From a virus (taxonomy: Duplodnaviria; Heunggongvirae; Uroviricota; Caudoviricetes), in IMG/VR virus record IMGVR_UViG_2623620496_000002, positions 1 to 26,571 of that record: a stretch of DNA of 26,571 nucleotides; one strand, 5' to 3'. Position 1 is the first letter of the stretch. Every line of letters starts with the position of its first letter. The position numbers and the translations under genes are program-made. Under the pieces are notes generated by a model. That model saw only the letters and a program-made list of their open reading frames with translations, ran no database searches and was not told the DNA's origin. Below are positions 6,673 through 23,495 of this stretch, one piece after another.

Positions 6673-7698
6673 TTACGCCAGTTGTACGGACACGAACGCA
6701 TCAGGGTCAGCCAGCAGCATCAGCGGTGCTGACTGAATCATGGTGAACTCACGCGCCGGATCGCCGGTGGTCACCCAGTTTTTCGGGTAGCGGGCAGAGG
6801 CGTTAATGCCTTCGCGCTGTGCGTCCGCATCCTGAATGCAGCCATAGGTGCGCAGACCACGTGCCTGAGTGTTCCCCAGCAACATCGTGTTGTCCGGCAG
6901 GAAGTTCTTTTTGACGTCGTTTTCCACGTACTGTCCGGAATACACGACGATCGCCATATCGCCATACATCCCCTTATAGGACACCGCTTCGCCCAGGTCT
7001 TTTACCGCTGTCTCCAGCTCGGAATGAGAGCCGCGACGGGTATCCAGCTTCTCCTTGACGGCTTTGAAGGAACGGAACAGCGCCCAGCCTTTCGGATCGA
7101 ACACGATGATATTCACCACACCGCTGGCGTTCAGCGCGTAGGCTTCGATATCGTCGGTCGGGTCATACGTGGACTTGTCACGCTTGCTCCACTCCGTGCC
7201 GCCGGACTGCGTGATGTTATTCGCCGCACTGCGGCCCATATCCACCTCAACCGGATCGAAGGCTTCACCGGTCATGGTGTATTTGCCTTTAAGCACGGCA
7301 GAAACGGCCTGCATCTCTTCGACCTGGGCAATGGCCAGCTCTTCGTCACGCATGTTCTGCATAATGATGCGACGGCGACGGTAAGCCGGGTCCGCCAGAT
7401 TCTGCGGATCTTCATCCGGCAGGCGACGCAGGGTCATCTGCGGATTCACTTCATGCTTCGGCTTGACATATCCCGGCGTAAATTCAGAGGTGGAGCCGCC
7501 ACGGGAACGGATAACCTCACCGGAAACAATCGGCGAAACGTACAGCGCCATGTTTACCAGTCCCGGAATTTGTGAGAGATAGACTTTCTCCGTGGTGAAG
7601 GGATAGCTCTCACGGAAAAAGAGACGCAGAAACAGCGGTTCAAACTTAAATTTCTGCTCATTTGCCGCCAGCAGCTGGGCGGTTGTGTACATCGACAT
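6673..7698 (-). CDS. E: major capsid protein gpE
   Basis: ORF 6673..7725 contains MSMYTTAQLLAANEQKFKF... to ...FVSVQLA, near-identical to recalled lambda gpE (341 aa); start placed at ATG 7696..7698. Confidence 0.95.
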   Translation of the reverse strand: MSMYTTAQLLAANEQKFKFEPLFLRLFFRESYPFTTEKVYLSQIPGLVNMALYVSPIVSGEVIRSRGGSTSEFTPGYVKPKHEVNPQMTLRRLPDEDPQNLADPAYRRRRIIMQNMRDEELAIAQVEEMQAVSAVLKGKYTMTGEAFDPVEVDMGRSAANNITQSGGTEWSKRDKSTYDPTDDIEAYALNASGVVNIIVFDPKGWALFRSFKAVKEKLDTRRGSHSELETAVKDLGEAVSYKGMYGDMAIVVYSGQYVENDVKKNFLPDNTMLLGNTQARGLRTYGCIQDADAQREGINASARYPKNWVTTGDPAREFTMIQSAPLMLLADPDAFVSVQLA

Positions 7699-7753
7699 AA
7701 AAAAATCCCGTAAAAAAAGCCGCACAGGCGGCCTTTAGTGATGAAGGGTAAAG

Positions 7754-8701: not shown

Positions 8702-9415
8702 CCGGGACTGCAGTGTCTCCCGGACGTCATCCGGAAGATGGCTGTAGGGGTTGCCATCCACCTTATGGCTGCCGCTGTAAATCAGCGTGATTTCCACACC
8801 CTGTTTCTCCAGCGCAGCACCGTAATTACTGTGAGCCATCATGACGCCGATGGAGCCTGTCCGGGCGGTCTGCGTGACCAGACGCCGGGAGGCAGCACTG
8901 GCAAGCAGCTGACCTGCACTGCAGTTCATGTCGTTGGCCAGCGCCCATACCGGTTTTATGTCACGCACACGGGCGATGATGTCAGCGCAGTCAAATGCTC
9001 CCGCCACCATTCCGCCTGGCGTGTCCATATCGAGCAGAATGCCGTCCACCATCGGATCGCTGGCAGCCTGTTGCAGACGGGCGATAATGCCGTTGTAACC
9101 GGTCATCCCCGAATACGGCTGCAGCGCCCGCGTCCGGCTGACCAGCGTGCCGGACACCGGCAGCACGGCGATGCCATTCATGACCTGATAACTGCGGGCC
9201 TGTCGTGGCCCGTCATCATCACCGGATAACGCCAGCGTCGCGGGTGACTCTCCGGCAGTCAGGCTGTCACCTGACACCGCATCCGTCAGGCGGCTTATCC
9301 CAAGCTGGCCTGCAAGCGCACAAAAGAAAACCCGCGCATAGGCGGGTTCAAGCATCAGCGGCTCATTAAAGGCCATGCTGGCAATATGCGGGAGATTACG
9401 CAGCTCTGCTGTCAC
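8096..9415 (-). CDS. C: capsid assembly protease gpC (GTG start)
   Basis: Long ORF 8096..9550; lambda-like C sequence begins at VTAELRNLPHIASMAFNEPLMLEPAYARVFF..., coded from GTG at 9413..9415. This gives 439 aa and a 20-nt overlap with the B stop, the same arrangement as recalled for lambda. Confidence 0.85.
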   Translation of the reverse strand: MTAELRNLPHIASMAFNEPLMLEPAYARVFFCALAGQLGISRLTDAVSGDSLTAGESPATLALSGDDDGPRQARSYQVMNGIAVLPVSGTLVSRTRALQPYSGMTGYNGIIARLQQAASDPMVDGILLDMDTPGGMVAGAFDCADIIARVRDIKPVWALANDMNCSAGQLLASAASRRLVTQTARTGSIGVMMAHSNYGAALEKQGVEITLIYSGSHKVDGNPYSHLPDDVRETLQSRMDATRQMFAQKVSAYTGLSVQAVLDTEAAVYSGQEAIDAGLADELVNSTDAITVMRDALDARKSRLSGGRMTKETQSTTVSATASQADVTDMVPATEGENASAAQPDVNAQITAAVAAENSRIMGILNCEEAHGREEQARVLAETPGMTVETARRILAAAPQSAQARSDTALDRLMQGAPAPLAAGNPASDAVNDLLNTPV

Positions 9416-10169
9416 TCTTCTCCTCCTCTGTTGATTGTCGCAGTCCGGATTCAAATGCCGCAGCCGCCCAGGCTGGCGGTTTAAGACCGGCTGCGCGGCG
9501 CTCCATCGTTTCACGGACCTGCTGGGCAAAAATTTCCTGATAGTCGTCACCGCGTTTTGCGCACTCTTTCTCGTAGGTACTCAATCCGGCTTCTATCAGC
9601 ATCACCGCTTCCTGAACTTCTTTCAGACCATCGATGGCCATACGACCGGAGCCTATCCAGTCGCAGTTCCCCCAGGCACTGCGTGCTTCCTGAAAGCTGA
9701 AGCGCGCTTTTGAAGGTAACGTCACCACGCGGCGAACGATGGCCTCTTCCAGCCAGCACAGAAACATCTGGCTCGCCTGACGGGATGCGACGAATTTTCG
9801 CCGCCCCATAAAGTGCGCCCACGACTCGTTCGCGCTGGCCCGTGCCGTGGAGTAGCTCATCTGGGCGTAATTCCGGGAAAGCTGCTCATACGAGACACCC
9901 AGCCCGGCAGCGATATACCGCAGCAGTGACTGCTCAAACACGGAGTAGCCGTTATCCGTGTCCTGAGCCGTCTGCAGGTTCAGTGAGTCACCCGGCATCA
10001 GGTGCGGTACTTTTGCGCCTCCCAGCCGGACCGGCGCTGCGGCGTAATACGCGGCAATTTCACCAATCCAGCCGGTCAGCCTTTCCCGCTGCTCCTGACT
10101 GTTCGCGCCCAGAATAAAATCCATCGCTGACTGCGTATCCAGCTCACTCTCAATGGTGGCGGCATACAT
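9396..10169 (-). CDS. B: portal protein gpB, C-terminal segment (gene split by inserted element)
   Basis: 257 aa ORF MYAATIESELDTQSAMDFILGANSQEQRERLTGWIGEIAAYYAAAP...EEEKSDSRAA corresponds to the C-terminal part of recalled lambda gpB (about residues 277-533); lambda-like sequence stops abruptly at 10175. Confidence 0.9.
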   Translation of the reverse strand: MYAATIESELDTQSAMDFILGANSQEQRERLTGWIGEIAAYYAAAPVRLGGAKVPHLMPGDSLNLQTAQDTDNGYSVFEQSLLRYIAAGLGVSYEQLSRNYAQMSYSTARASANESWAHFMGRRKFVASRQASQMFLCWLEEAIVRRVVTLPSKARFSFQEARSAWGNCDWIGSGRMAIDGLKEVQEAVMLIEAGLSTYEKECAKRGDDYQEIFAQQVRETMERRAAGLKPPAWAAAAFESGLRQSTEEEKSDSRAA

Positions 10170-10175
10170 CGCCTT
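10163..10175. repeat. 13-bp direct repeat at left junction of inserted element (putative att core, CATACATCGCCTT)
   Basis: CATACATCGCCTT at 10163..10175 matches CATAAATCGCCTT at 20562..20574 (12/13), the points where lambda-like B sequence ends and resumes. Confidence 0.7.
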
Positions 10176-10250
10176 TATGAAAAGACAGGAAAAAATAAAA
10201 TTTAAAAACAGTACATTACGAATGCTCAGACCTATCGTTTAAAGGAGTCG

Positions 10251-10271
10251 CAATACACACTGCAATACACG
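10251..10271. repeat. two direct copies of GCAATACAC near the left end of the element (candidate integrase or regulator binding sites)
   Basis: GCAATACAC at 10251..10259 and 10263..10271; the same motif occurs three times at the right end (20386..20438). Confidence 0.5.
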
Positions 10272-10612
10272 ATTATTTATAAGATGAGCGGCATCCGTCA
10301 TAAAGCTGGTGGATGCTTTTTCTATGCATATATGCACAGTTTTAGTGGGCGTTAATGTCGATATAGGGATCCCCATATCGAGATTGGATACCTGGCTTTT
10401 TTCCGGTTAACCTTTAATCAGGCTGGTGGGCTTTACCTGTTTTGTATGAGTGGTCATCATGACCATGTCATAACAAAAACCCCATATTCGTGGTTTTTCT
10501 GTGTCGGGCTATTCTGTCGTTGCTGTGCTGATTTGGCTGGTGGGCTGAATCATCATTACGGCGATGCAGCTATGTAGACGTTCCGGCCTCCTCAAATTGA
10601 GGATTGTGGAAG

Positions 10613-10720
10613 AATCAATGGGTTAGTCTTACTTTCCCGACATCCCCCAATGGGGGTTTTCGAAACAATCAATAGCTTAGGCTTACTTCCCCGATTTCCT
10701 GCATTGCAGGTTTTCGAAAT
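10613..10720 (+). repeat. tandem ~54-bp repeat units, each with a GC hairpin followed by TTTTCGAAA (candidate small RNA or terminator elements)
   Basis: Unit A 10613..10666 and unit B 10667..10720 both start AATCAAT and end GGTTTTCGAAA. Hairpins CCCCCAATGGGGG (10644..10656) and CCTGCATTGCAGG (10699..10711) differ by paired changes that keep the stem. A third partial unit and further hairpins follow at 10721..10828. Confidence 0.6.
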
Positions 10721-10984
10721 AATCAATGGGTTAGGCCATCGTGCAATTTTGCACTTTGCCAGCCAGCGCAATGTCGCGTTATCAGTCCTCAGATGTGAGG
10801 GATGTAGCCAGCTTTTCCCCCAGTGGGGGATATCCAGCACCGACGGCTTAACTGTGCGTGCCAGCACAAGGTAGCCTTGAACTACTTACTGCATCCCATC
10901 TTACAGGCCGTGCCTTCCTGCTTAACTTTTTGCAATGCAACAAGTCAGCCAGCGCAATTTTGCGTTATCGGGAATATCAGCAAG

Positions 10985-11266
10985 TTACCGCCGCAATCGT
11001 TCCGGCTTCTTCCACTGGTAAGTATTTTTCGCGCTCTCCCTCCGTTGTTGAGAACGGCGACGATATGCCAGCAACTCAAGGACTCTTGTTCGTATGTTGC
11101 GCATATCCACGCCGTTAAGCTCAATACCGTCACGGCGCATCACCTCAGCCACTACACGCACATAATTATCTGCGGTCACGCTGTCCGGCTGCGTGGCCTG
11201 TTCGTCATGCTGCTTGCTGATTCCACAAGCACGGCGGATTAATCGCAGTATTTCGGATTCAGTCAT
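10985..11266 (-). CDS. hypothetical protein (93 aa) downstream of satellite small-terminase homolog
   Basis: ORF MTESEILRLIRRACGISKQHDEQ... directly downstream of the TerS-like gene; no recognisable motif; weak RBS. Confidence 0.45.
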   Translation of the reverse strand: MTESEILRLIRRACGISKQHDEQATQPDSVTADNYVRVVAEVMRRDGIELNGVDMRNIRTRVLELLAYRRRSQQRRESAKNTYQWKKPERLRR

Positions 11267-11277
11267 AGCGTACTACG

Positions 11278-11820
11278 TTACTTATCTTTATTCGGCTGCA
11301 ACTTATCCGGTACGTTTCCGGCAGTTTCCATCAGATAATCGGACAGCATCAGCGGTATGTTTTCGTCAAGTTTTGCGCATGCGTTACGGGCTCTGATAAC
11401 TTCTTTTTTCAGTCCATCCAGCATAGACGGCTTCATGTCGGGAAACTTCCTTGTCATGGCAAGCGGCAGGCTGTCCATGATTGAAGAAATCTGACTCGCT
11501 AGTTTTGAAATCGCGTAGATGCAAAACTTTGTATCAATCACCTCGCCGCGTTCGCGCTCGTTTTTAAGTTCCTGCGCTTCCGCCTGGGCCGTCATTAATC
11601 TGATTCTTACGCGTAAAAGTTCATCATCATCAATCTCGCCTTTGTCGTCTGTAATCTGGTTAATTGCATTGCTAACCCGATTGTCTATTACGCTGGCAAC
11701 ATCATAAAACGCCTCGCGGCCTTTACGTTCAACGGGAGTCACTCCCCACTTGTCGAACGCTGTCGCACTTACACGGCAGCTTTGCGCCATGTTTTTTTTG
11801 TTCATCAGGTGCGATTTCAT
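11278..11820 (-). CDS. terminase small subunit homolog (Nu1-like; candidate packaging-redirection protein)
   Basis: C-terminal half aligns with the prophage Nu1 in this same window (LMTAQAEAQELKNERERGEVIDTKFCIYAISKLASQISSIMDSLPLAMTRKFPDM versus LTRAQADAQELKNARDSAEVVETAFCTFVLSRIAGEIASILDGIPLSVQRRFPEL); N-terminal region divergent. Start taken at ATG 11818..11820 (MKSHLMNKK) with GGGG RBS; the track ORF begins at an upstream GTG. Confidence 0.8.
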   Translation of the reverse strand: MKSHLMNKKNMAQSCRVSATAFDKWGVTPVERKGREAFYDVASVIDNRVSNAINQITDDKGEIDDDELLRVRIRLMTAQAEAQELKNERERGEVIDTKFCIYAISKLASQISSIMDSLPLAMTRKFPDMKPSMLDGLKKEVIRARNACAKLDENIPLMLSDYLMETAGNVPDKLQPNKDK

Positions 11821-11932
11821 CAATATCCCCACTTAAGTAATGTTTCAGGTTGGTGTATTGGCTTTATCTTTTCCTTTTTATTCATAGAGATAGAGCGAAC
11901 AACAAAACCACCACCAGCACCCGAAAAAGGCT

Positions 11933-11996
11933 CATAAATAGCGAAAACCCGCGAGGTCGCCGCCCCGTAGCCTACCGGATCGCCGGAAAGGACCCG
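11933..11996. other. satellite cos site (cohesive-end region AGGTCGCCGCCC at 11954..11965)
   Basis: CATAAATAGCGAAAACCCGCG-AGGTCGCCGCCC-CGTAGCCTACCGGATCGCCGGAAAGGACCCG closely matches the prophage cos block at 24198..24261 except inside the 12-nt core; the core is the reverse complement of the recalled lambda cohesive end GGGCGGCGACCT. Lies just upstream of the TerS-like gene, as cos lies upstream of Nu1. Confidence 0.75.
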
Positions 11997-12021
11997 CCAG
12001 CCAGAACGGGCCCTAATTTCA

Positions 12022-12405
12022 TCAACCAATCAACTTATAGCGACCATCCCGTGCATTGCGACGTACACGCTCAATCTTGAGGCATAGCGCCGCATCTGGC
12101 TTTTTTGGGACAGGTACGCGGCAATATTCAGAAGATCGAGGAATATTGTTTATCCAGTCGATCACTTCACTTAAATACCAGGCCTTACGCCCTTCCGTAA
12201 CCTGTACGCGTTCGGGGAACTCTCCGCGAGCCTCAAGGTTTAGCAATGTGCGACGGCTAAGGGTAGTAAGTTCCATCACCTGATTCATATCAACAAGGCG
12301 TTCACTTAAACGCATTTTGTCAGCAATAGCCTTTAATTCCTCTACTGCTGGATCCGGATACATCATTTCGGCAATTGGCTTAAGGTCATTGTAATGATTC
12401 TGCAT
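12022..12405 (-). CDS. putative AlpA/MerR-like helix-turn-helix DNA-binding protein
   Basis: Segment MELTTLSRRTLLNLEARGEFPERVQVTEGRKAWYLSEVIDWI resembles AlpA-family HTH; start placed at ATG 12403..12405 (MQNHYNDL) preceded by AAAGGGGGA RBS; the track ORF starts at an upstream TTG. Confidence 0.6.
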   Translation of the reverse strand: MQNHYNDLKPIAEMMYPDPAVEELKAIADKMRLSERLVDMNQVMELTTLSRRTLLNLEARGEFPERVQVTEGRKAWYLSEVIDWINNIPRSSEYCRVPVPKKPDAALCLKIERVRRNARDGRYKLIG

Positions 12406-12416
12406 TGTATCCCCCT

Positions 12417-12758
12417 TTACACACAAGCCAGCGGCTGAACAGAAATACCTGAGCCAACAAACGCGGCAACCTTTGCCGACAGTTCTTTTACAGACTCAGG
12501 CCAGTTCAGAGCATCAACATTTAAAACACCTGTCTTATAAACCTGTGCCTGTGTTTTTTTCGCTGTGTCGATTTGTACAGCGGAAACATAAACCGCTTTA
12601 CCTACGCTCGAACCATCCCATACCACCAGTGCACCTGTTGCATCTTCCTGCATCAGTGGCGTAAATGCAGGAATTACCCCTTTATTAGCTGAAAATATCC
12701 CCAGCGTAGTCACCAGTGCTTCAGTGCCAGCCATGAGTTCAGTGTAATGAGTAGCCAT
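12417..12758 (-). CDS. head decoration protein homolog (gpD-like) encoded by the satellite
   Basis: 113 aa; central region GALVVWDGSSVGKAVYVSAVQID...VYKTGVLNVDALNWPE parallels prophage gp[24 protein letters not shown]...[16 protein letters not shown]; strong RBS GGGGGAG before the ATG. Confidence 0.75.
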   Translation of the reverse strand: MATHYTELMAGTEALVTTLGIFSANKGVIPAFTPLMQEDATGALVVWDGSSVGKAVYVSAVQIDTAKKTQAQVYKTGVLNVDALNWPESVKELSAKVAAFVGSGISVQPLACV

Positions 12759-12767
12759 TGCTCCCCC

Positions 12768-13808
12768 TTAGCCAATGCGAACGGTAACAAAACGATTGAT
12801 GCGGGCCGGTATTGGCTGTGGTGCTGAATGTGTCTGCACATATTCAATAGCCGGATCACCAGGCACAATATAGTTTTTCGGTGCAAGTTCGGCTTTAGTC
12901 AGCCCCATTCGGATTAGCTCCGGATCCTGAATACCGCCATAGGCGACAATCCCCTGAAGAGCCGTATTGCCAAGCACCATCAAATCAGGATCAAGGAAAT
13001 GTTTTTCTGTTCCGTCCTCGTCGGTATAACGCCCGCTGTAAACAACAATCGCAACATCGCCCATATACCCTTTAAAACTCACCGAATCACCAAGGTCTTT
13101 AAGGGCCGTTTCCAGTTCGGAATTAGAACCACGACGGGTATCCAAAGCCTCTTTTATCGCTCTGAATGAACGGTATTTCTTCCATACATTACCACCCATA
13201 ATGATGATATTAGTGACGCCCTCACTAAATTCTGCGTAGCTCTCAATATCATCATTTGGATCAAAAGTTTCTTTATCCTTACCTGACCACTCAGTACCGC
13301 CAGACTGAGTGATGATATTTTGTGGTTTTATATTCCAGTCCAGCTCATAACGTTCAATACCATCGCCCTCAATGATATTTTTCCCCGTTGTGATTGCCTG
13401 AACAGCAAGCCATTCAATACGTGCACGAATAGCTTTAGCCTGATTTACAATCGCCTGTTTAACTTTAATATTACGCGCCCCAAAAGCATTGTATTGCTCA
13501 GGTGACACACCAGCAGGGCGCACAGCTAACTTATTTGGATCAATGCTGCTTTTCGGCTTCATATAACCTGGACGAATTGTTTTTGATTCGTATCCCTCAT
13601 CTCGTGAAACTTTACTGCCCACCATAGGAGAGCAAAACGCCGCGATCGGGATATTTGGATCGTCGATCGTATCAAGAATAATGTCTCTCGATTCAAACAT
13701 TACCGAGCGAGTGAAAAACAAACTGGTAAACAACGCATTTAATTTTTTTTGCACATCTTCAGCATTAGCCACCTGCACAAGCTGTGTAGGCGAATATAAA
13801 TCAACCAT
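12768..13808 (-). CDS. major capsid protein homolog (gpE-like) encoded by the satellite
   Basis: Aligns along its length with the prophage gpE in this window (for example QSGGTEWSGKDKETFDPNDDIESYA versus QSGGTEWSKRDKSTYDPTDDIEAYA; RSFRAIKEALDTRRGSNSELETALKDLG versus RSFKAVKEKLDTRRGSHSELETAVKDLG). Start placed at ATG 13806..13808 (MVDLYSPTQLVQVA, aligning to gpE MSMYTTAQLLAANE) with AAAGAGGA RBS; the upstream extension in the ORF track is rejected. Confidence 0.85.
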   Translation of the reverse strand: MVDLYSPTQLVQVANAEDVQKKLNALFTSLFFTRSVMFESRDIILDTIDDPNIPIAAFCSPMVGSKVSRDEGYESKTIRPGYMKPKSSIDPNKLAVRPAGVSPEQYNAFGARNIKVKQAIVNQAKAIRARIEWLAVQAITTGKNIIEGDGIERYELDWNIKPQNIITQSGGTEWSGKDKETFDPNDDIESYAEFSEGVTNIIIMGGNVWKKYRSFRAIKEALDTRRGSNSELETALKDLGDSVSFKGYMGDVAIVVYSGRYTDEDGTEKHFLDPDLMVLGNTALQGIVAYGGIQDPELIRMGLTKAELAPKNYIVPGDPAIEYVQTHSAPQPIPARINRFVTVRIG

Positions 13809-13982
13809 ACGCATCCTCTTTGCATTCATTAAAAATAATTGTGGATATATGCTATCACCGATATTTGTCATGCGAATACATGCAACCGAGTGCAATGTTG
13901 TATAAAGTTTTGGGATAACAACTTCAGCGCGGATAATTAGTGTTAATATCTTCACTCCCTTTGGTCGGGATTTATGTAGCAT

Positions 13983-14014
13983 GCCGGAAAATTTATTTTT
14001 TTCCGGCCTTTTTT
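13983..14014 (+). terminator. rho-independent terminator-like hairpin between ssb and capsid-homolog genes
   Basis: GCCGGAAAA-TTTATTT-TTTTCCGGC (9-bp stem, 13983..14007) followed by CTTTTTT on the plus strand and flanked by an A-run on the other side; may act bidirectionally. Confidence 0.45.
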
Positions 14015-14025
14015 ATTGGCAATAT

Positions 14026-14475
14026 TTAAAACGGAATATCATCTCCCCATTGCTCATTTTCTCCCACTGGTGGATGGCTTCCTTGCTGATCTGCCTGTTG
14101 TTTTGCTCTGTTCAGTGCGTCAGTAGCCTGACCCTGTTGACCTTTTTTGCCGCCCGGTCGCACCGTTCGCGCACTGATTACGCTGTCTGCGATAACCTGC
14201 CAGCCCTGCCGCGTTTCACCGTTCTGGCCTGTCCACTGTCTTACCTGCATGTTACCCGCCACGCTCACCAGTTCGCCTTTGTGGTGTTTTGCCAGTGCGT
14301 CGGCCTGTCTGCCAAACGCCAGGACGGATAACCACATCGTCGCCGTTCCGTCATCTGCCTGGCTGCACGGAAGGGGGACCGCCATACTAGCCATCGTCAT
14401 TTGTGTACCCTTGCTGGTGGTCTTTAACTGCGGGTCAGCCACCAGCCGCCCGTAAGCCGCTATCTGTGCTGTCAT
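14026..14475 (-). CDS. ssb: single-stranded DNA-binding protein
   Basis: 149 aa, glycine/glutamine-rich linker and acidic C-terminal tail ending DDIPF, the characteristic SSB tip. Confidence 0.85.
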   Translation of the reverse strand: MTAQIAAYGRLVADPQLKTTSKGTQMTMASMAVPLPCSQADDGTATMWLSVLAFGRQADALAKHHKGELVSVAGNMQVRQWTGQNGETRQGWQVIADSVISARTVRPGGKKGQQGQATDALNRAKQQADQQGSHPPVGENEQWGDDIPF

Positions 14476-14723
14476 GCTGTCTGCTCTCCAGTTTTAACGT
14501 TGATGGTTGTCACCTGTTCCGCTTCGGCAATCTCCCGTTCTGTCAGCGTGGCAAAGTTTGCCGCCGTCGTGGTCATGAATGCGCTTATCAGTTCGGGGTG
14601 TGCTTTCGCGTATCCTTCCCCAGCGTGGCGGTCTATCGTTCTGATTGCCACCTTTAAGGCGTGCTCTGTCATGTCTAACGCTTTATATTTTGGCGCTGTC
14701 TTATCTCTGGTTTTTCTGGTCAT
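14472..14723 (-). CDS. hypothetical protein (83 aa)
   Basis: ORF between the iteron cluster and ssb; stop overlaps the ssb start; no recognisable motif. Confidence 0.5.
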   Translation of the reverse strand: MTRKTRDKTAPKYKALDMTEHALKVAIRTIDRHAGEGYAKAHPELISAFMTTTAANFATLTEREIAEAEQVTTINVKTGEQTA

Positions 14724-14732
14724 TCCTCACTG

Positions 14733-14926
14733 CTCCCCACTTTTACTACCCACTTTTTGAAATTACCCAACGTCTCCCCACTTCTTTTTTTTGTGATTCT
14801 AACGTGATGTTTTTCAATGTGTTTTTTATTCCCCACTTTTTGGGGTATATACAGGTGGGAAAGTGGGGAATCACGTTTCAATTTTGTTAAATTCCCCACA
14901 CTCCCCACTTTTACTACCCACTTTTT
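14733..14926. repeat. iteron cluster, putative satellite replication origin
   Basis: Perfect 26-bp direct repeat CTCCCCACTTTTACTACCCACTTTTT at 14733..14758 and 14901..14926, plus additional CCCCAC(T)TTT copies (14774, 14831, 14893) and an inverted copy AAGTGGGG (14861..14868), immediately downstream of the replicase gene. Confidence 0.65.
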
Positions 14927-16340
14927 ACAGTGGGCGCACGTCATCACCGTCAATAGCAATAACGCCATCACCTTCCAGCTTGTACAGCCAGCGCCGGAAG
15001 TGTTTCATCTCATACCCCAGCTTTTTCATATCATCGCGCAACAACGGAATAGTGCATTTATCTCCGCGCTGTGTGCGTGAACGGATACAGCCCCATAGCG
15101 CGGCATGATTCTCCGTCTTGTTCCCGGCTTCCTCGATGCGCTCCAGTTCAACGGGTGGGCGCGGCTTATCCACAACAACCAGCGACGTGATTAACTCCCC
15201 GTCAGTGTCGGTAAAAAGCTCCACCACACGTAAATCGTATGCGGCCTCTTTCAGTTCCTCCGCGTCCTTCATTTTTGTGCAGGAGATAACCAGGGCTTCA
15301 CTGTCTGCACCTTCACGGCGAATACGGTATTCAGCGTCCAGAGATGCACGAAATGCACTGGAACCACGCGCCCCCTTTGTTTCATCCTTGCCGGAATGGT
15401 GAACCACCAGCACCGTGGCCCCTGTGCGGCGTTTCAGTTCGTCACATCCACGGATAAACGCCCCCATATCCCGCGCGTCATTTTCATCATTACCGCCAAA
15501 GCAACGCGCCAGCGTATCAAGAATAATCATGCGTACCGGTTTACCCGTTTCCCGTTCAACCTGGCGGGAAGCGATGACCATTTCATCAACATCAAGCGGG
15601 ACTGCCGGAAAAATCGGGCGGTTTACCAGGTACAGATTTTCCACCCGTTCATCATTAACGATTTCCCATGCCTTGATACGGCGGGGGACACCAATGCCAC
15701 CTTCACCGACAACATACATCACCGAACCATGCGCCACCCTGCGGCCTCCCCAGTGACGGCCAGTGGCAACATGACACGCCCAGGAACACGCGAGGAACGA
15801 TTTATAGGAACCGCTCGCGCCGTATGTGCTGCACAATGAATTAGCCGGAATCACGCCCTTAACGACATAATCAAGCTGTGTGTCGTACCCTGCAGATCCA
15901 ATGCTCATTGGTAGCGTGGTTTTTCGCTGGCTGTATTGCTCGTCAGTAAGTATTTCCCCGCGCTCTGCCTGTTCGCGGATCCGTTGCAGGTAGTCGTGCC
16001 AGTTCTCCAGCTTCTGGCTGTGCATTCCATCAGGGTAATAATTCGCATCCCGTACACCTGCCGCCGCCAGCTTTTGCCCGATAGCATTAATATTTGACGG
16101 CTTGATGTGGCCTGCCTTGTACAGCCGGACACAATAGCGACCATCGTCGATAATTTTCAGGTCTGCCAGTTCGTCAAGCTGGCTGTCTCCCAGCCATACA
16201 GGCGGGACGTTATCACCAGCAAGTCGCCCGTCCTGTTCCTGCCACTGTTTCGCGTGCGCCCAGGCATCACTACCCGCAAAAATAATGACTTCGGTCATTT
16301 TGTCGTGTGGCTGTTTTTTTAAGTTCGGTGCCAGTTTCAT
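14925..16340 (-). CDS. replication initiation protein (primase/helicase-like, RecA-like ATPase domain)
   Basis: 471 aa; Walker A-like YGASGSYKSF and Walker B-like RMIILDTLARCF, then VLVVHHSGKDETKGARGSSAF typical of RepA/DnaB-like ATPases; start overlaps upstream ORF stop (ATGA). Confidence 0.8.
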   Translation of the reverse strand: MKLAPNLKKQPHDKMTEVIIFAGSDAWAHAKQWQEQDGRLAGDNVPPVWLGDSQLDELADLKIIDDGRYCVRLYKAGHIKPSNINAIGQKLAAAGVRDANYYPDGMHSQKLENWHDYLQRIREQAERGEILTDEQYSQRKTTLPMSIGSAGYDTQLDYVVKGVIPANSLCSTYGASGSYKSFLACSWACHVATGRHWGGRRVAHGSVMYVVGEGGIGVPRRIKAWEIVNDERVENLYLVNRPIFPAVPLDVDEMVIASRQVERETGKPVRMIILDTLARCFGGNDENDARDMGAFIRGCDELKRRTGATVLVVHHSGKDETKGARGSSAFRASLDAEYRIRREGADSEALVISCTKMKDAEELKEAAYDLRVVELFTDTDGELITSLVVVDKPRPPVELERIEEAGNKTENHAALWGCIRSRTQRGDKCTIPLLRDDMKKLGYEMKHFRRWLYKLEGDGVIAIDGDDVRPL

Positions 16341-16636
16341 TTTTTGCCCCTGAATGCGTTAATCATGTTTTTCATTTTCTGAATATTTGCCCGTGCCTTT
16401 GCGTTGCTGGTGGGCTGTTTGCGTGGTGTGGCCTGTATCAGTGAAAAATCACGCCGGAACTGATAAGCAGGCATCACGCAGTCATAGCCGTACCCATCAC
16501 GGCGGTAAGTAACGCACCGCCCCGCCACGCTTTTAATCGTTACCGTGCCACCGTAGTTATCCCGGAAAATATCGCCGGGGCGGATTTCAGGCCGAGGGAG
16601 ACCACTGGCAGTAAAGCCAGAATTTTTCTGTTTCAT
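16337..16636 (-). CDS. hypothetical protein (99 aa)
   Basis: ORF whose stop overlaps the replicase start, suggesting translational coupling; no recognisable motif. Confidence 0.55.
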   Translation of the reverse strand: MKQKNSGFTASGLPRPEIRPGDIFRDNYGGTVTIKSVAGRCVTYRRDGYGYDCVMPAYQFRRDFSLIQATPRKQPTSNAKARANIQKMKNMINAFRGKK

Positions 16637-16642
16637 GTTTTT

Positions 16643-16861
16643 TTACTCCAGAGGCAGATTTTTAGCGGCGAGTTCAATATCAGATGTCAGAGAAACCTGT
16701 GTATTTGCCAGGTCTAACAACAAAGAAATAAGAATTTCCTCTCTGCTATCGGATTCATCGGTGCTAAGGCTGTTCATCCACATATTGACGACTTCCCTGA
16801 TTTTTTTCGCAGAGTGCAGGGCTTCAAATGCCAGGTCTTCAATATCATGTTTATTTCGCAT
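16643..16861 (-). CDS. hypothetical protein (start uncertain)
   Basis: Track ORF 16643..16927; internal ATG at 16859..16861 (MRNKHDIE) chosen to limit overlap with the upstream gene. Confidence 0.4.
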   Translation of the reverse strand: MRNKHDIEDLAFEALHSAKKIREVVNMWMNSLSTDESDSREEILISLLLDLANTQVSLTSDIELAAKNLPLE

Positions 16862-17063
16862 AATCGCCCCCGCGTAACTGGTCTGCACTAACACCCGATT
16901 TAGTGAGCATTTCAGAAAATCCCGCAAGAGTGCTGATAAATTCGTTTTCCATTAAACGGCACTGGCATTTAACCCGGCCTTTTTCCAGATACACCAGTAC
17001 GCGCCACGTATAATCTGACGGCACATTCAGCACTACAGATAAGTGCGCTTCATTATTATTCAT
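16851..17063 (-). CDS. hypothetical protein (70 aa)
   Basis: Compact ORF in the small-gene cluster between the regulatory region and the replicase. Confidence 0.45.
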   Translation of the reverse strand: MNNNEAHLSVVLNVPSDYTWRVLVYLEKGRVKCQCRLMENEFISTLAGFSEMLTKSGVSADQLRGGDYAK

Positions 17064-17292
17064 GGCTCACCACCTCCATATCAGCCATGATAATTTTGCT
17101 GGCCTCATTCAGTGCCATATCAGCACTAAGTTGCATTACAGCCAGTGAATGAGGAACGAAAGCCCCGGCATATTCTGTTTCACTGGTAGCGTGCTTATGC
17201 GCCCTGTCCGCGATAACAGAAATATCAATCAGCGCATCAATCAGTGTTTTGATTGCTTCGGCGGCTGCGTCCGGACGGGTGTTATTGCACAT
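17056..17292 (-). CDS. hypothetical protein (78 aa)
   Basis: Compact ORF overlapping neighbours by a few nt, same orientation as the cluster. Confidence 0.45.
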   Translation of the reverse strand: MCNNTRPDAAAEAIKTLIDALIDISVIADRAHKHATSETEYAGAFVPHSLAVMQLSADMALNEASKIIMADMEVVSHE

Positions 17293-17488
17293 GGTGCACC
17301 CCCTGACGAATACGGGCGGCGAATACCATCACGCAGCCAGCCGGTGATTGCTGACGGGCTTCCTGTTCGCTGGTGGCCTCAATGGTAATCACGCGCGGTT
17401 GTGCCGTACTCAGGGCGATAAAACGCCAGATGTATTTATTCAGGTTGTGCGAGCCCCGCCCTTGCGGGTGTGTGGTATGATTTCTCAT
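17282..17488 (-). CDS. hypothetical small protein (68 aa), possibly Icd-like
   Basis: C-terminal 68 codons of track ORF 17282..18274, starting ATG 17486..17488 (MRNHTTHPQGRG...); first gene downstream of the divergent operator region. The Icd-like label is a weak recollection, not verified. Confidence 0.4.
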   Translation of the reverse strand: MRNHTTHPQGRGSHNLNKYIWRFIALSTAQPRVITIEATSEQEARQQSPAGCVMVFAARIRQGVHHVQ

Positions 17489-17585
17489 AGCTACCTCGAT
17501 ACTGTTGCTATCGTTGGTGGTTAGAAGCCCGGTTAGTGTTAGCGCACTGCCGGGTTTCGTCGTTTCTGCACCTTGCACCAACAAG

Positions 17586-17637
17586 GTGTTGAACACCAAT
17601 TTAAACCCAGGTGTTGAACACGTCAAGTGTTGAACAC
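17586..17637. promoter_or_regulatory. three copies of palindromic operator GTGTTGAACAC in a divergent promoter region
   Basis: GTGTTGAACAC at 17586..17596, 17611..17621 and 17627..17637, between the minus-strand start at 17488 and the plus-strand start at 17688. Confidence 0.6.
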
Positions 17638-17687
17638 TTGTTTTTTTTCCTGCATACTGCATTTGTTTTTTGTGAGGGGTACACAAC

Positions 17688-17867
17688 ATGGCGACAAAAG
17701 CAGTAAACGCAAAATCACAAACAGTTGCGGCAAGGGTTCCGCATGAAGTTATGAACAATGTTGAGGCGGTAAAAATGCCTGGTGAAAGTACAGGGCAGTT
17801 TGTAACAGCAGCATTAAAGCGAGAAGTTGAATACCGCCAGCGACGCAAGGCTAAAGAGCAAGAATAA
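17688..17867 (+). CDS. putative ribbon-helix-helix type small DNA-binding regulator (59 aa)
   Basis: ATG 17688 preceded by GAGGGG RBS; translation MATKAVNAKSQTVAARVPHEVMNNVEAVKMPGESTGQFVTAALKREVEYRQRRKAKEQE; below the 60-aa cutoff of the ORF track; directly downstream of the operator repeats. Confidence 0.55.
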   Translation: MATKAVNAKSQTVAARVPHEVMNNVEAVKMPGESTGQFVTAALKREVEYRQRRKAKEQE

Positions 17868-17924
17868 TCACTATCAGCGCTGTGGTGTGAGGTACTCCGG
17901 CGCATTGCTTTACAGGTCGGCACT

Positions 17925-18134
17925 ATGAGCAAAAAATACCTATCCACTGAAGAGATTTTCGCAGAACAACGAAGATTGCTTTTACAGAGCATTGTTGCAC
18001 GCCAGAAAGAAAAGGCACACGCTAAACAAATGCCACCAAATACAGAACCAGCGCCTACAAAATTTGCGCTTGATGAGTTTCTCAATAAACAGCCCCGGGT
18101 AATGAAAGCTAACAGGAACCGCCCACCAGGCTGA
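17925..18134 (+). CDS. hypothetical protein (69 aa), second gene of plus-strand regulatory operon
   Basis: ORF MSKKYLSTEEIFAEQRRLLLQSIVARQKEKAH... between the RHH gene and the plus-strand terminator. Confidence 0.5.
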   Translation: MSKKYLSTEEIFAEQRRLLLQSIVARQKEKAHAKQMPPNTEPAPTKFALDEFLNKQPRVMKANRNRPPG

Positions 18135-18200
18135 TCACATTGCCCACCAGCCGCAAATGTGGCATTGTTGGTGATGCTTTTGTTTTCCCTTGTTCCCACT

Positions 18201-18229
18201 GGCGACCCTTTTGCGGTCGCCTTTGTTTT
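18201..18229 (+). terminator. rho-independent terminator
   Basis: GGCGACC-CTTTTGC-GGTCGCC stem-loop (18201..18221) followed by TTTGTTTTG. Confidence 0.6.
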
Positions 18230-18230
18230 G

Positions 18231-18809
18231 TCACTGAATGCGGTTACCAAAGTAAAACTCAGGCTGATATTCACGTATCAGCGTTTTTTCTTCTTCCTCC
18301 AGCTCACGCTTTTTGCGCTTACATGCCTGTAGCTCCCTCCCCTTCTCGCTGGCACTTATTTGATATTGCTCTTTACGGCGGGAAAAATCCTGTAATGCAC
18401 CCCACGGGATACCATAAGCCCCCGTTTTTCTGATACCCGGTATCACATTTCTGAATACCCAGTTACTGAAACGATGAGCAAATGTGCCAGGCGTCGTTGC
18501 TTTGCGGCTGCGGGCTATTAGTTTGTAGAAACCTGACTCAGAGATAATTCTCATATTCTGATTTCCTCCTGGGGTGTAAGTTAAATTTACTCCCTTTTCA
18601 TCATCATCAAGCATCTGCAACGCCGTACGCGAATTGGTTAGTTCCAGCACAGCACAAACATCTTTTGCAACAAACCACGGATCGCCGTTCAGATACACCA
18701 CACGAACGTTCACACTATCAAAGCGCAGAACGACGAGATCACGAATATCGCAGAATTTTTTCACTGGACGAGCGTACCCCTTGCCCGTCACGGCAATATT
18801 TTTATTCAT
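18231..18809 (-). CDS. Bro-N domain protein (phage antirepressor-like)
   Basis: N-terminal VRVVYLNGDPWFVAKDVCAVLELTNSRTALQMLDDDEKG matches the Bro-N motif; C-terminal part charged and coiled-coil-like. Confidence 0.75.
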   Translation of the reverse strand: MNKNIAVTGKGYARPVKKFCDIRDLVVLRFDSVNVRVVYLNGDPWFVAKDVCAVLELTNSRTALQMLDDDEKGVNLTYTPGGNQNMRIISESGFYKLIARSRKATTPGTFAHRFSNWVFRNVIPGIRKTGAYGIPWGALQDFSRRKEQYQISASEKGRELQACKRKKRELEEEEKTLIREYQPEFYFGNRIQ

Positions 18810-18865
18810 CGCGTTTTTACCTTATAGACAAAAAACCCCTCGTGATGAGGGGCATTATTTACTGG

Positions 18866-19123
18866 TTATTGCTGTTTTGTTTTTCCAGGTTTCCATCCAG
18901 GATGCCACTCACCACGGATCCATGCCTGAACCTCTGAAAGTCGATACCCTGCAGCACGTTCACCGATCTTGATACGTCGCGGGAATTTACCTGCCTGCTC
19001 CATTTTCCAGCGTGTTGAGTTTGCCAGCGTGGTAAGTGCTATGCACTCTTTTTCACGAATGAACCGATCAATGTCCTTCATTGTGCGCAAATCGTTTTCA
19101 TCAACAAGAGAATAAATTGCCAT
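18866..19123 (-). CDS. alpA: AlpA-family transcriptional regulator / excisionase-like protein
   Basis: 85 aa, HTH segment with WKMEQAGKFPRRIKIGERAAGYRLSEVQAWI typical of AlpA; immediately downstream of the integrase gene. Confidence 0.85.
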   Translation of the reverse strand: MAIYSLVDENDLRTMKDIDRFIREKECIALTTLANSTRWKMEQAGKFPRRIKIGERAAGYRLSEVQAWIRGEWHPGWKPGKTKQQ

Positions 19124-19124
19124 A

Positions 19125-20366
19125 TCACACCACCTCTTTATTAAGCTCGATAACGTTGTTGTTAAATCCTGCTATCGTATTAAGGTAATTAACCCATATA
19201 TTAAGCACCTCAAGTTTTTTCTTTATATGCCTGCTTTTATTGTAAACACCAGCAACCCCTTTCACTTTATGACCTAAAAGAAGTTCGACAATATAAGGAT
19301 CCGCCCCCATATCATTAAGCGTAGTGGAAAATGTGCGCCTGAAATCATGTATGCACCACAAGCCATTAGTATCATGACCAAGACGCCTGCATATTCTGTT
19401 TGCAGCCCCTGTTATTGTCGCCCTTTGCAAAGCACAACCGACAACATAACCGCGATTTTTTGTTTCTGCGTAAAGATTAACGATCCATTGTTTTATTCCG
19501 TCAGGAACAGGCCTTACTATAGCCTCCTTGTTTTTGCTGTGCTCTTTTGGGACTGTCCATACCCAGTTTTTTAAATCCCATTCGTCCCAGGTGGATAGCC
19601 TCGCCTCCTGCTGTCGGCAACCAAACACCAGGCAGATAACCATTATTCTTCGGTTATATATTGATGACAGAGTTAGCAAATTATTACCGTAAGCATAAGA
19701 CCATACATCAGCGGTTTCATTGATATTAAGAACGCGATCCCTTATACCGGATGAGCGCCCGACATAACTTACGTTAATATCTCCAAAGGGATCGCACGCG
19801 ATGTATTGCCTGACGCGACAAAAACGCAACGCCTGTTTGATATCAAGAAAAATTGCACCAGACATAACAGGCGCATTTTTTTTGATCCTGTCAAAGACGG
19901 TAAGCCATGTGTGTAATTTGCACTGTTCTATAGCCATATCACCGATATAGGGGAAGATATGCTTTTCAAATCGTTTTATTAAATATTCATGCTCTTTTCT
20001 GGCTGTTGTGGCGTGATTGTCGTACCAGTAAAACAGCGCATCCCTTACGGTCACTGGTTGCATAGTTTTTTCGGCAGCAAGTTTTATTTGCCTGCGGGGG
20101 TCCAGATTTTCAGCCAGCCATTCACGGCACTGATCACGCATGCGCCTGGCCGTTGCAAGAGACATGTCAGGATAGCGACCAAGTGTAAGCCATACCGGAG
20201 GGGATTCCCTGCCACCAAGACGATAGTAAAAAACAAAGCTGATCCCCCCAACCATGCTTACACGCACAGACAACCCGCGCCCATCCGCTATTGTTTTTTG
20301 TTTGTCCTGCCGTTTTCCGACAAGACTCTTTAACAGTTTGTCACTGAGTTTGTTTTCAATAGCCAT
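19125..20366 (-). CDS. int: tyrosine-type site-specific integrase (P4-like)
   Basis: 413 aa; N-terminal arm-binding-like region, C-terminal catalytic residues HDFRRTF...LLGHKVKGVAGVYNKS with the conserved tyrosine. Confidence 0.95.
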   Translation of the reverse strand: MAIENKLSDKLLKSLVGKRQDKQKTIADGRGLSVRVSMVGGISFVFYYRLGGRESPPVWLTLGRYPDMSLATARRMRDQCREWLAENLDPRRQIKLAAEKTMQPVTVRDALFYWYDNHATTARKEHEYLIKRFEKHIFPYIGDMAIEQCKLHTWLTVFDRIKKNAPVMSGAIFLDIKQALRFCRVRQYIACDPFGDINVSYVGRSSGIRDRVLNINETADVWSYAYGNNLLTLSSIYNRRIMVICLVFGCRQQEARLSTWDEWDLKNWVWTVPKEHSKNKEAIVRPVPDGIKQWIVNLYAETKNRGYVVGCALQRATITGAANRICRRLGHDTNGLWCIHDFRRTFSTTLNDMGADPYIVELLLGHKVKGVAGVYNKSRHIKKKLEVLNIWVNYLNTIAGFNNNVIELNKEVV

Positions 20367-20385
20367 TAAAAGCCCTCAAGAGATT

Positions 20386-20438
20386 TGCAATACACACCCA
20401 TCCCGATCGCCAATTTGCAATACACATTGCAATACACA
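20386..20438. repeat. three direct copies of TGCAATACACA upstream of int (candidate arm-type or regulatory sites)
   Basis: TGCAATACACA at 20386..20396, 20416..20426 and 20428..20438; same core as the left-end copies at 10251..10271. Confidence 0.55.
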
Positions 20439-20514
20439 AAACCGCGAAAAACTGGAAGGGTGATGAACGGTCATCAAAAGCATGGAAAACGACATTCCAG
20501 ACGCAGCAAGGGTT

Positions 20515-23495
<2,981 letters not shown>

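Follow-up and report, generated by a model that had tools for sequence, protein, structure and literature searches.

An iteron array 3' of a RepA-type helicase gene as the putative replication origin of a satellite embedded in an Escherichia coli prophage

The replication origins of Gram-negative PICIs are located immediately 3' of pri-rep and consist of two iteron sets which flank an A/T-rich region (PMC6092414, Fillol-Salom et al. 2018), and for EcCICFT073 it was found that a pri-rep-ori clone replicates while rep or ori deletions do not (PMC6092414). The Rep proteins of SaPIs are self-loading helicases which recognize, by means of a C-terminal winged helix, 6-12 iterons of five or six nucleotides located directly downstream of the rep ORF, and SaPI origins exhibit oppositely oriented iterons around an A/T-rich centre (PMC9371898). 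Helper-embedded PICIs (HE-PICIs) were reported to be replicated passively as part of a helper composite, and replication of HE-PICI 11capE after excision was weak or undetectable in two out of three repeats (PMC10111431). Finally, the genes of GN-PICIs have been described as one unidirectional transcription unit (PMC10111431, PMC6092414).

Judging from its sequence, the 201-nt gap that separates the stop of rep from the next gene start (14723) in the satellite described here, and that is filled by repeats, very probably represents the vegetative replication origin of an HE-PICI. A preliminary description of this DNA had proposed such a role for the iteron cluster, and the proposal gains support from sequence analysis, that is, from the synteny with EcCICFT073, from about 70 loci with an array at the rep stop, and from the co-variation of the iterons with residue 447 of Rep. 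The origin would thereby be located for a widespread satellite replicon, since a search of 5,426 complete E. coli genomes revealed RepA-type PICIs and HE-PICIs in several hundred of them, and such elements occur in many genera of the Enterobacterales as well. Amplification of the satellite after its excision is plausible.

A satellite in the portal gene of a lambdoid prophage

The window, i.e., the whole stretch of DNA that was analysed (26,571 nucleotides; 26.6 kb), is the late region of an E. coli lambdoid prophage with lambda-type late genes on the minus strand (RefSeq annotation, Pfam), and 2 kb around the repeats (14400-16400) are identical to E. coli chromosomes. A satellite of ~10 kb (about 10170..20514), co-oriented with the prophage and having all of its genes on the minus strand as is characteristic of HE-PICIs, interrupts the portal gene at Pfam position ~240, and this insertion point is the published site B:Phage_portal_2:241 (PMC10111431). 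The satellite genes are arranged in the order tyrosine integrase, AlpA, Bro-N, Icd-like gene, DUF4222 and helicase RepA family (rep), followed by the gap under study, an 83-aa gene, SSB, a capsid-E homolog and a decoration protein, and, in the last part, by a second AlpA-like gene and a Nu1-like small terminase gene (terS). The features relevant for the present analysis are:

20515..21396, minus strand: one half of the lambda-family portal gene (profile positions 2-242; Pfam, RefSeq)
9396..10169, minus strand: the other half of the portal gene (profile positions 238-354; Pfam, RefSeq)
14925..16340, minus strand: rep, encoding a 471-aa initiator-helicase (Pfam AAA_25, E = 3e-44; RefSeq 'helicase RepA family protein')
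14472..14723, minus strand: conserved 83-aa gene directly after the putative ori; in EcCICFT073, an 85-aa gene occupies the syntenic position behind the ori
14026..14475, minus strand: satellite-encoded SSB, replication module (Pfam SSB, E = 1e-16; RefSeq)
12768..13982, minus strand: lambda-E-type capsid homolog of 404 aa with a ~70-residue N-terminal extension ahead of the Pfam match
12417..12758, minus strand: decoration protein of the satellite
12022..12426, minus strand: second AlpA-like gene of the satellite
11278..11832, minus strand: Nu1-like terS, of which only the C-terminal half of the profile is matched

The element is an HE-PICI residing inside the prophage portal gene. Because it is an HE-PICI located at a published insertion site, the labels 'satellite' and 'replicase' of the preliminary description are appropriate. 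A search of a phage collection with the complete satellite sequence as query matched nothing but the portal and terminase parts of the adjoining prophage, and the satellite was present in no phage record.

Three further observations concern the prophage and the ends of the satellite. In the otherwise matching strain CFSAN064035 (L001), the major capsid gene of the helper is broken by IS621; the capsid ORF (6673..7725) is intact in the window. Three copies of ATTTGCAATACACA are located in 20383..20438, between the integrase start and the portal junction, with one 86% match at the other satellite end (10246..10259), and they are probably arm-type binding sites of the integrase. At the far satellite end beyond the Nu1-like terS, region 10589..10734 comprises three 38-nt units with a spacing of exactly 54 nt, each consisting of a short hairpin (TCCTCAAATTGAGGA, TCCCCCAATGGGGG or TCCTGCATTGCAGG) followed by TTTTCGAAAYAATCAATRGSTTAG, and these units are a candidate terminase-binding (cosB-like) array.

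The repeats between rep and the next gene

A repeat search identified the perfect 26-nt direct repeat CTCCCCACTTTTACTACCCACTTTTT at 14733-14758 and 14901-14926, that is, at both positions for which the preliminary description had listed it. No exact direct repeat within 250 nt exceeds it in length in any part of the window; among 200 windows simulated under a Markov-1 model as a control, the longest repeat of this kind measured 11.2 nt on average and 14 nt at maximum. Each 26-mer turns out to be a pair of adjacent iterons, 13 nt apart. The shorter copies noted previously, including an inverted one, were likewise recovered: all six copies of CCCACTTT in the window (both strands) are located inside 14724-14930, and inverted copies are present at 14854-14871, where 14860-14871 forms a perfect 12-nt inverted repeat with 14828-14839 and is adjoined by a further copy at 14854-14859. 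The same segment contains 10 of the 45 CCCAC copies of the window (0.27 expected; Poisson P ~5e-13) and 6 of its 15 CCCCAC copies (Poisson P ~2e-10). The array begins, as had been claimed, just past the replicase gene, with the rep stop codon (14925-14927) overlapping the last 2 nt of the second 26-mer. One CCCAC (14930-14934) was rejected as an iteron; it resides within the last rep codons and remains unchanged across the iteron classes of the relatives, and is therefore coding sequence.

An Rfam scan of the whole window gave no match, leaving the gap without a known RNA, and single-strand folding of the gap yielded only the hairpins that are expected from the inverted iterons (z = -2.5), which is uninformative. 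The organization of the gap is as follows:

14724..14927, minus strand: putative ori, comprising the whole gap from rep to the next gene (60% A+T versus 48% for the window)
14892..14926, minus strand: proximal iteron set of three direct copies, including copy 2 of the 26-mer (14901..14926)
14830..14871: dyad core, composed of two inverted iterons (14854..14871), GTATATACA (14845..14853) and a direct iteron (14830..14842)
14783..14829: A/T-rich spacer between the iteron sets (47 nt, 76.6% A+T)
14725..14782, minus strand: distal iteron set of ~5 direct copies, including copy 1 of the 26-mer (14733..14758)

In gene orientation, the proximal iterons read AAAAAGTGGGTAGT, AAAAGTGGGGAGT and GTGGGGAAT (14926-14892), and in A-class relatives (see below) their base 4 switches from G to A in concert. 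About 20 nt separate this set from the two inverted iterons (14871-14854), which are followed by the conserved dyad element GTATATACA, reading TGTATATAC in gene orientation and being surrounded by the perfect 12-nt inverted repeat. Several positions of the dyad core are invariant in an alignment of E. coli origins, and the core, which sits on the rep side of the A/T-rich spacer and not across it, is a probable nucleation or melting point in view of this sequence arrangement. The cores of the distal set are located at 14776-81, 14766-70 (degenerate), 14749-53, 14735-40 and 14726-30, the last one being GTGAGG and serving also as the Shine-Dalgarno sequence of the next gene. Overall, this amounts to ~11 iterons with a unit of ~9-13 nt; six precede the spacer as seen from rep (three direct, two inverted and one direct) and ~5 lie beyond it. 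The gap exhibits what is expected of a PICI-type origin, namely (i) a site immediately 3' of the initiator gene, (ii) ~6-12 iterons in two sets which flank an A/T-rich region, and (iii) oppositely oriented iterons around a centre (14828-14839 / 14860-14871). No DnaA box was seen on reading through the gap.

An open reading frame extends across the same region:

14720..14971, minus strand: mechanically predicted ORF of 83 aa with a GTG start, spanning the putative ori

One might thus consider that the region encodes this 83-aa protein and that the repetitiveness of the DNA simply reflects that of the peptide, in which KKWVVKVGS occurs twice. The frame is open in the window and in one relative (L083), but it is broken by 1-7 stops in 9 of the 11 E. 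coli relatives, with the G to A change of the iterons itself creating TGA in this frame. Moreover, neither Pfam nor NCBIfam yielded a match, RefSeq left the ORF unannotated in all 12 genomes examined, and conservation tracks the DNA repeat units on both strands, inverted copies included, and not the reading frame. The only reason for the ORF being open is that the iterons happen to be stop-free in that frame. A coding origin of the repeats hence appears exceedingly improbable; comparison of the sequences indicates that the ORF is no gene, as the preliminary description had suspected, and a spurious entry is removed from the annotation.

In order to place the array in a wider context, 80 Rep-homolog loci of Enterobacterales were retrieved from a collection with one genome per species. 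Of 78 loci with enough flanking sequence, 70 contain 4-11 copies of one hexamer in the 300 nt after the rep stop; the rest of each locus (~6.7 kb, both strands) contains 0-7 copies. Most arrays share a common layout, starting on the rep side with 2-3 direct copies and an inverted copy ~55-60 nt past the rep stop, and continuing with usually exactly 24 nt that include TATATA, a direct copy, a spacer of 50-60 nt and 3-4 direct copies. The resulting dyad CCNCAC-N24-GTGNGG is present in most loci, and TATAYA is located between the copies in 55 of 65 pairs; the A/T-richness of the spacer is not constant in other genera. The iteron core is GTGGGG, GTGAGG or GTGCGG depending on the lineage, with GTGGGGA in the window, Kluyvera, Pantoea and others, GTGGGGG in Serratia, Pectobacterium, Erwinia and Morganella, GTGCGGC in Kosakonia, Enterobacter, Citrobacter and Leclercia, and GTGAGGA in Xenorhabdus and Rosenbergiella.

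Two peculiarities of individual loci deserve mention. In Xenorhabdus beddingii (L003), the 330 nt past the rep stop hold two tandem origin-like arrays, the first with GTGAGG and the second with GTGGGG, each having its own inverted copy and TATATA core. Furthermore, GCCATTACTGG is found in the ori spacers of five loci which belong to several iteron classes (L030, L041, L046, L075 and L095) and is absent from the window; it occurs also in the unrelated, D5-type origin of EcCICFT073 (L094, about 34190..34200), and may be a shared host-factor site.

The survey bears directly on the question of whether the repeats are instead an operator or promoter array for the downstream genes (83-aa gene, SSB and capsid), which is bound by Rep or another regulator and has no origin function. 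Plasmid iterons often also autoregulate, the last iteron of the window overlaps a Shine-Dalgarno sequence 3-10 nt from the next start codon, and TATATA in the dyad core could serve as a -10 element. However, a promoter and terminator scan of 14300-15300 revealed no sigma-70-like promoter and no terminator, and the description of GN-PICI genes as a single unidirectional transcription unit is likewise at odds with a promoter in the gap. The array stays at the rep stop although the downstream gene differs: ProQ follows in L091 as well as in L096, and in L095 the next gene is 455 nt away. This anchoring to rep, whatever follows, speaks against a promoter or operator that serves one specific downstream gene. 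In addition, the same gap in EcCICFT073 is needed for plasmid maintenance (PMC6092414). An exclusively regulatory role of the repeats is thus considered improbable.

Slightly less probable still is that the iterons bind Rep mainly for the purpose of copy-number control, handcuffing or incompatibility among satellites residing in the same cell, with initiation occurring elsewhere or passively via the helper. Such a role would be in line with the passive replication of HE-PICIs in the helper composite and the weak replication of 11capE after excision (PMC10111431), and the switching between G, A and C classes resembles a diversification into incompatibility groups. Yet, control of this kind is compatible with origin function, as iteron origins normally do both, and the dyad centred on TATATA together with the A/T-rich spacer represent origin-like features that are conserved across genera. 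Also, no other repeat cluster that could serve as an origin is found near rep.

The Rep protein and its relation to the iterons

Rep, for which >2,900 homologs exist, comprises an N-terminal part of ~135 aa, a RepA/AAA_25 core (residues ~152-320) and a predicted C-terminal winged helix (residues 410-471). A PDB sequence search with Rep returned only RSF1010 RepA (1g8y; E = 0.004), and since this protein is the sole sequence relative in the PDB and AAA_25 is matched, the core is assigned to the SF4/RecA-type helicases. NCBIfam provided only weak RadA/DnaG-like matches, and there is no Rep_3-type Pfam match in Rep. The C-terminal domain corresponds to:

14928..15113, minus strand: predicted winged-helix domain of Rep, residues 410-471 (AlphaFold2, Foldseek)

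In an AlphaFold2 model of residues 385-471, pLDDT exceeds 90 for residues 410-471, which form three helices (H-H-H) followed by a beta-hairpin. A Foldseek search of the PDB with this domain yielded as top matches mainly winged-helix DNA-binding domains, among them those of DtxR, LexA, MarR family, HrcA and the MCM WHD, with probabilities of 0.9-0.99; the E-values are weak (at least 0.12), as is expected for a domain of ~60 residues. According to the model, His447 (codon 15000..15002) immediately precedes the third helix, i.e., the recognition helix. Rep can hence be described as a helicase initiator, featuring the AAA_25 core, with a predicted C-terminal winged-helix origin-binding domain.

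Relatives of ~690 aa (L003, L038 and L049) contain Zn_Ribbon_Prim, Toprim and AAA_25 and share the same C-terminal domain and iteron arrays. Rep of the window exhibits neither zinc ribbon nor Toprim, and its N-terminal 135 aa are without a Pfam match. This N-domain (residues 1-140) was modelled as an alpha/beta fold (pLDDT 88), for which Foldseek gave no credible match against the PDB (probability <0.45, TM <0.35). Residues 1-135 (15936..16340) align with L094:32242-32643, that is, with the EcCICFT073 protein, at 63% identity over the N-terminal ~134 residues, so that the N-terminal domain appears as a swappable unit common to two different helicase classes (RepA-type in the window, D5-type in EcCICFT073). 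As the N-domain is shared and the iterons of the two elements are unrelated, it cannot be the iteron reader, and because the two Reps have only this domain in common, helicase, DNA-binding part and iterons must have been exchanged together as a cassette.

The class of the iterons is related to a single residue of the predicted winged helix. Eleven E. coli relatives with alignable origins (71-93% identity) fall into two iteron classes, in which base 4 is either G or A at six or more separate iteron copies (C or T on the inverted copy), switching together. His447 is found in all GTGGG and Asn447 in all GTGAG E. coli loci (10 of 10 intact proteins, with three C-terminal backgrounds), and the polymorphisms that flank this codon, before as well as after it, do not sort with iteron class; Rep of the window and that of L085 exhibit three differences in their last 85 residues. 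For 77 loci, residue 447 is the best class predictor of 335 residues tested, leaving a residual uncertainty of 0.066 bit versus 0.30 for the next column, a co-variation which is partly confounded by shared descent and by codon 447 being located only ~75 nt from the ori. His or Lys is associated with G, Asn with A, and Ser or Gly with C at base 4. L071, a single outlier and seeming exception, was rejected as such since it has no array at all.

When the rule was applied to loci fetched afterwards, three of four predictions came true. L097 (His447) has eight GTGGG, L098 (Asn447) six GTGAG and L099 (His447) 11 GTGGG copies, and the iterons of L095 (Gly447) are of the GTGCG type. A Salmonella contig (L096; Asn447) contains a mixed array of four GTGAG and three GTGGG copies, and the rule is therefore strong but not absolute: either L096 represents a recombinant origin, or something besides residue 447 contributes to specificity. 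From a chemical viewpoint, it makes sense that Asn pairs with adenine and His or Lys with guanine. Taken together, the co-variation, the predicted fold and the pairing chemistry suggest that the C-terminal winged helix of Rep is the iteron reader. We see about even chances that residue 447 constitutes a natural one-residue specificity switch which renders near-identical E. coli satellites orthogonal replicons. If this were true, all ~10 iterons would change with residue 447, and satellites could share a cell and a helper without cross-initiation. One would then be dealing with an initiator/origin code that is both compact and designable and that resides on an SF4 self-loading helicase; PICI initiators of this helicase class have not been described so far.

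The co-variation is also relevant for the view that the repeats are a packaging (cos/pac) recognition site of the Nu1-like small terminase. PICIs must be packaged, and the satellite encodes such a terS (11278..11832). On the other hand, the repeats co-vary with a residue of Rep and adjoin rep, 3 kb from terS; the array is kept in relatives without a terS nearby, and the repeat set at 10589..10734, near the terS end of the satellite, is the better packaging candidate. A role of the array in packaging is hence regarded as very improbable.

For the preferred reading of the gap as the replication origin, we infer the following course of events. The product of the adjacent rep gene would act as a self-loading initiator-helicase with an SF4 RepA-type ATPase core, the C-terminal winged helix of which would read ~11 short iterons, (A)AAGTGGGG in gene orientation. 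Rep oligomers assembled on the dyad and the flanking arrays would melt the TATATA and A/T-rich DNA and then load as a helicase. Since Rep of the window is devoid of a primase domain, priming would be accomplished by host DnaG, with elongation by a host polymerase and strand coating by the SSB of the satellite, and replication could proceed in this manner after excision. The principle of iterons located 3' of rep is already known, and it may be the details, that is, the fusion of an SF4 helicase with a winged helix and the single-residue iteron specificity, which are of specialist interest. The locus also provides an experimental handle, comprising an origin of ~200 bp, a predicted DNA-binding domain of 62 residues and one candidate specificity residue, which can be used for studying helper-independent satellite replication or for orthogonal PICI-based delivery vectors.

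Comparison with known replicons

The closest experimentally studied relative is EcCICFT073, which is located in the CFT073 chromosome and has its functional origin in the syntenic gap after rep. Both elements share the order int-alpA...DUF4222-rep-[ori]-small gene-SSB...capsid-decoration, with the ori (putative in the window) directly 3' of rep and composed of two iteron sets that flank a spacer. However, the EcCICFT073 iterons (TCTACC/GGTAGA) are unrelated to AAGTGGGG of the window, and the initiators differ past the N-domain, that of EcCICFT073 being of the D5_N/DUF5906/Pox_D5 (SF3-type) and that of the window of the AAA_25 RepA-type (SF4) with a winged helix. Like the published HE-PICIs (PMC10111431), the satellite possesses int, AlpA, Bro, and replication and late zones. 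The same paper gives the replication zone as Primase/SSB/DUF5906 with 'mapped origins' from the 2018 study, and mentions neither the present iteron array nor the RepA-type initiator; in a literature search of incomplete coverage, no description of RepA-type PICI replicons was found.

With SaPIs, the locus has in common (i) a helicase with a C-terminal winged helix, which is predicted in the present case, (ii) short iterons after the rep stop, and (iii) an A/T-rich region as well as oppositely oriented copies. SaPI Reps are SF3 or SF6 (MCM-like) proteins, and the PICI Reps that have been characterised also belong to one of these two classes; Rep of the window is of the SF4/RecA-type. Sequence homology to the SaPI system could not be detected, and the hosts are from different clades.

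The likeness to the IncQ plasmid RSF1010 lies in the RepA-type hexameric helicase core (AAA_25) acting at a putative iteron origin. RSF1010 divides the work between proteins, with RepC as the initiator that binds 20-bp iterons and RepB as the primase. In contrast, Rep of the window has a predicted DNA-binding domain fused to the helicase, the iterons measure ~8-9 bp, and no homolog of RepB or RepC is present. T7 gp4 combines zinc ribbon, Toprim and SF4 helicase as do the ~690-aa relatives, and differs in this respect from Rep of the window, which is devoid of zinc ribbon and Toprim. Finally, classical iteron plasmids (Rep_3 / RepA-pi-TrfA) rely on a non-helicase initiator with tandem winged helices, on iterons of 17-22 bp and on DnaA boxes, and the locus described here does not conform to this type. 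With its short iterons at the rep stop and its helicase fused to a predicted winged helix, it rather resembles the origins of PICIs and SaPIs.
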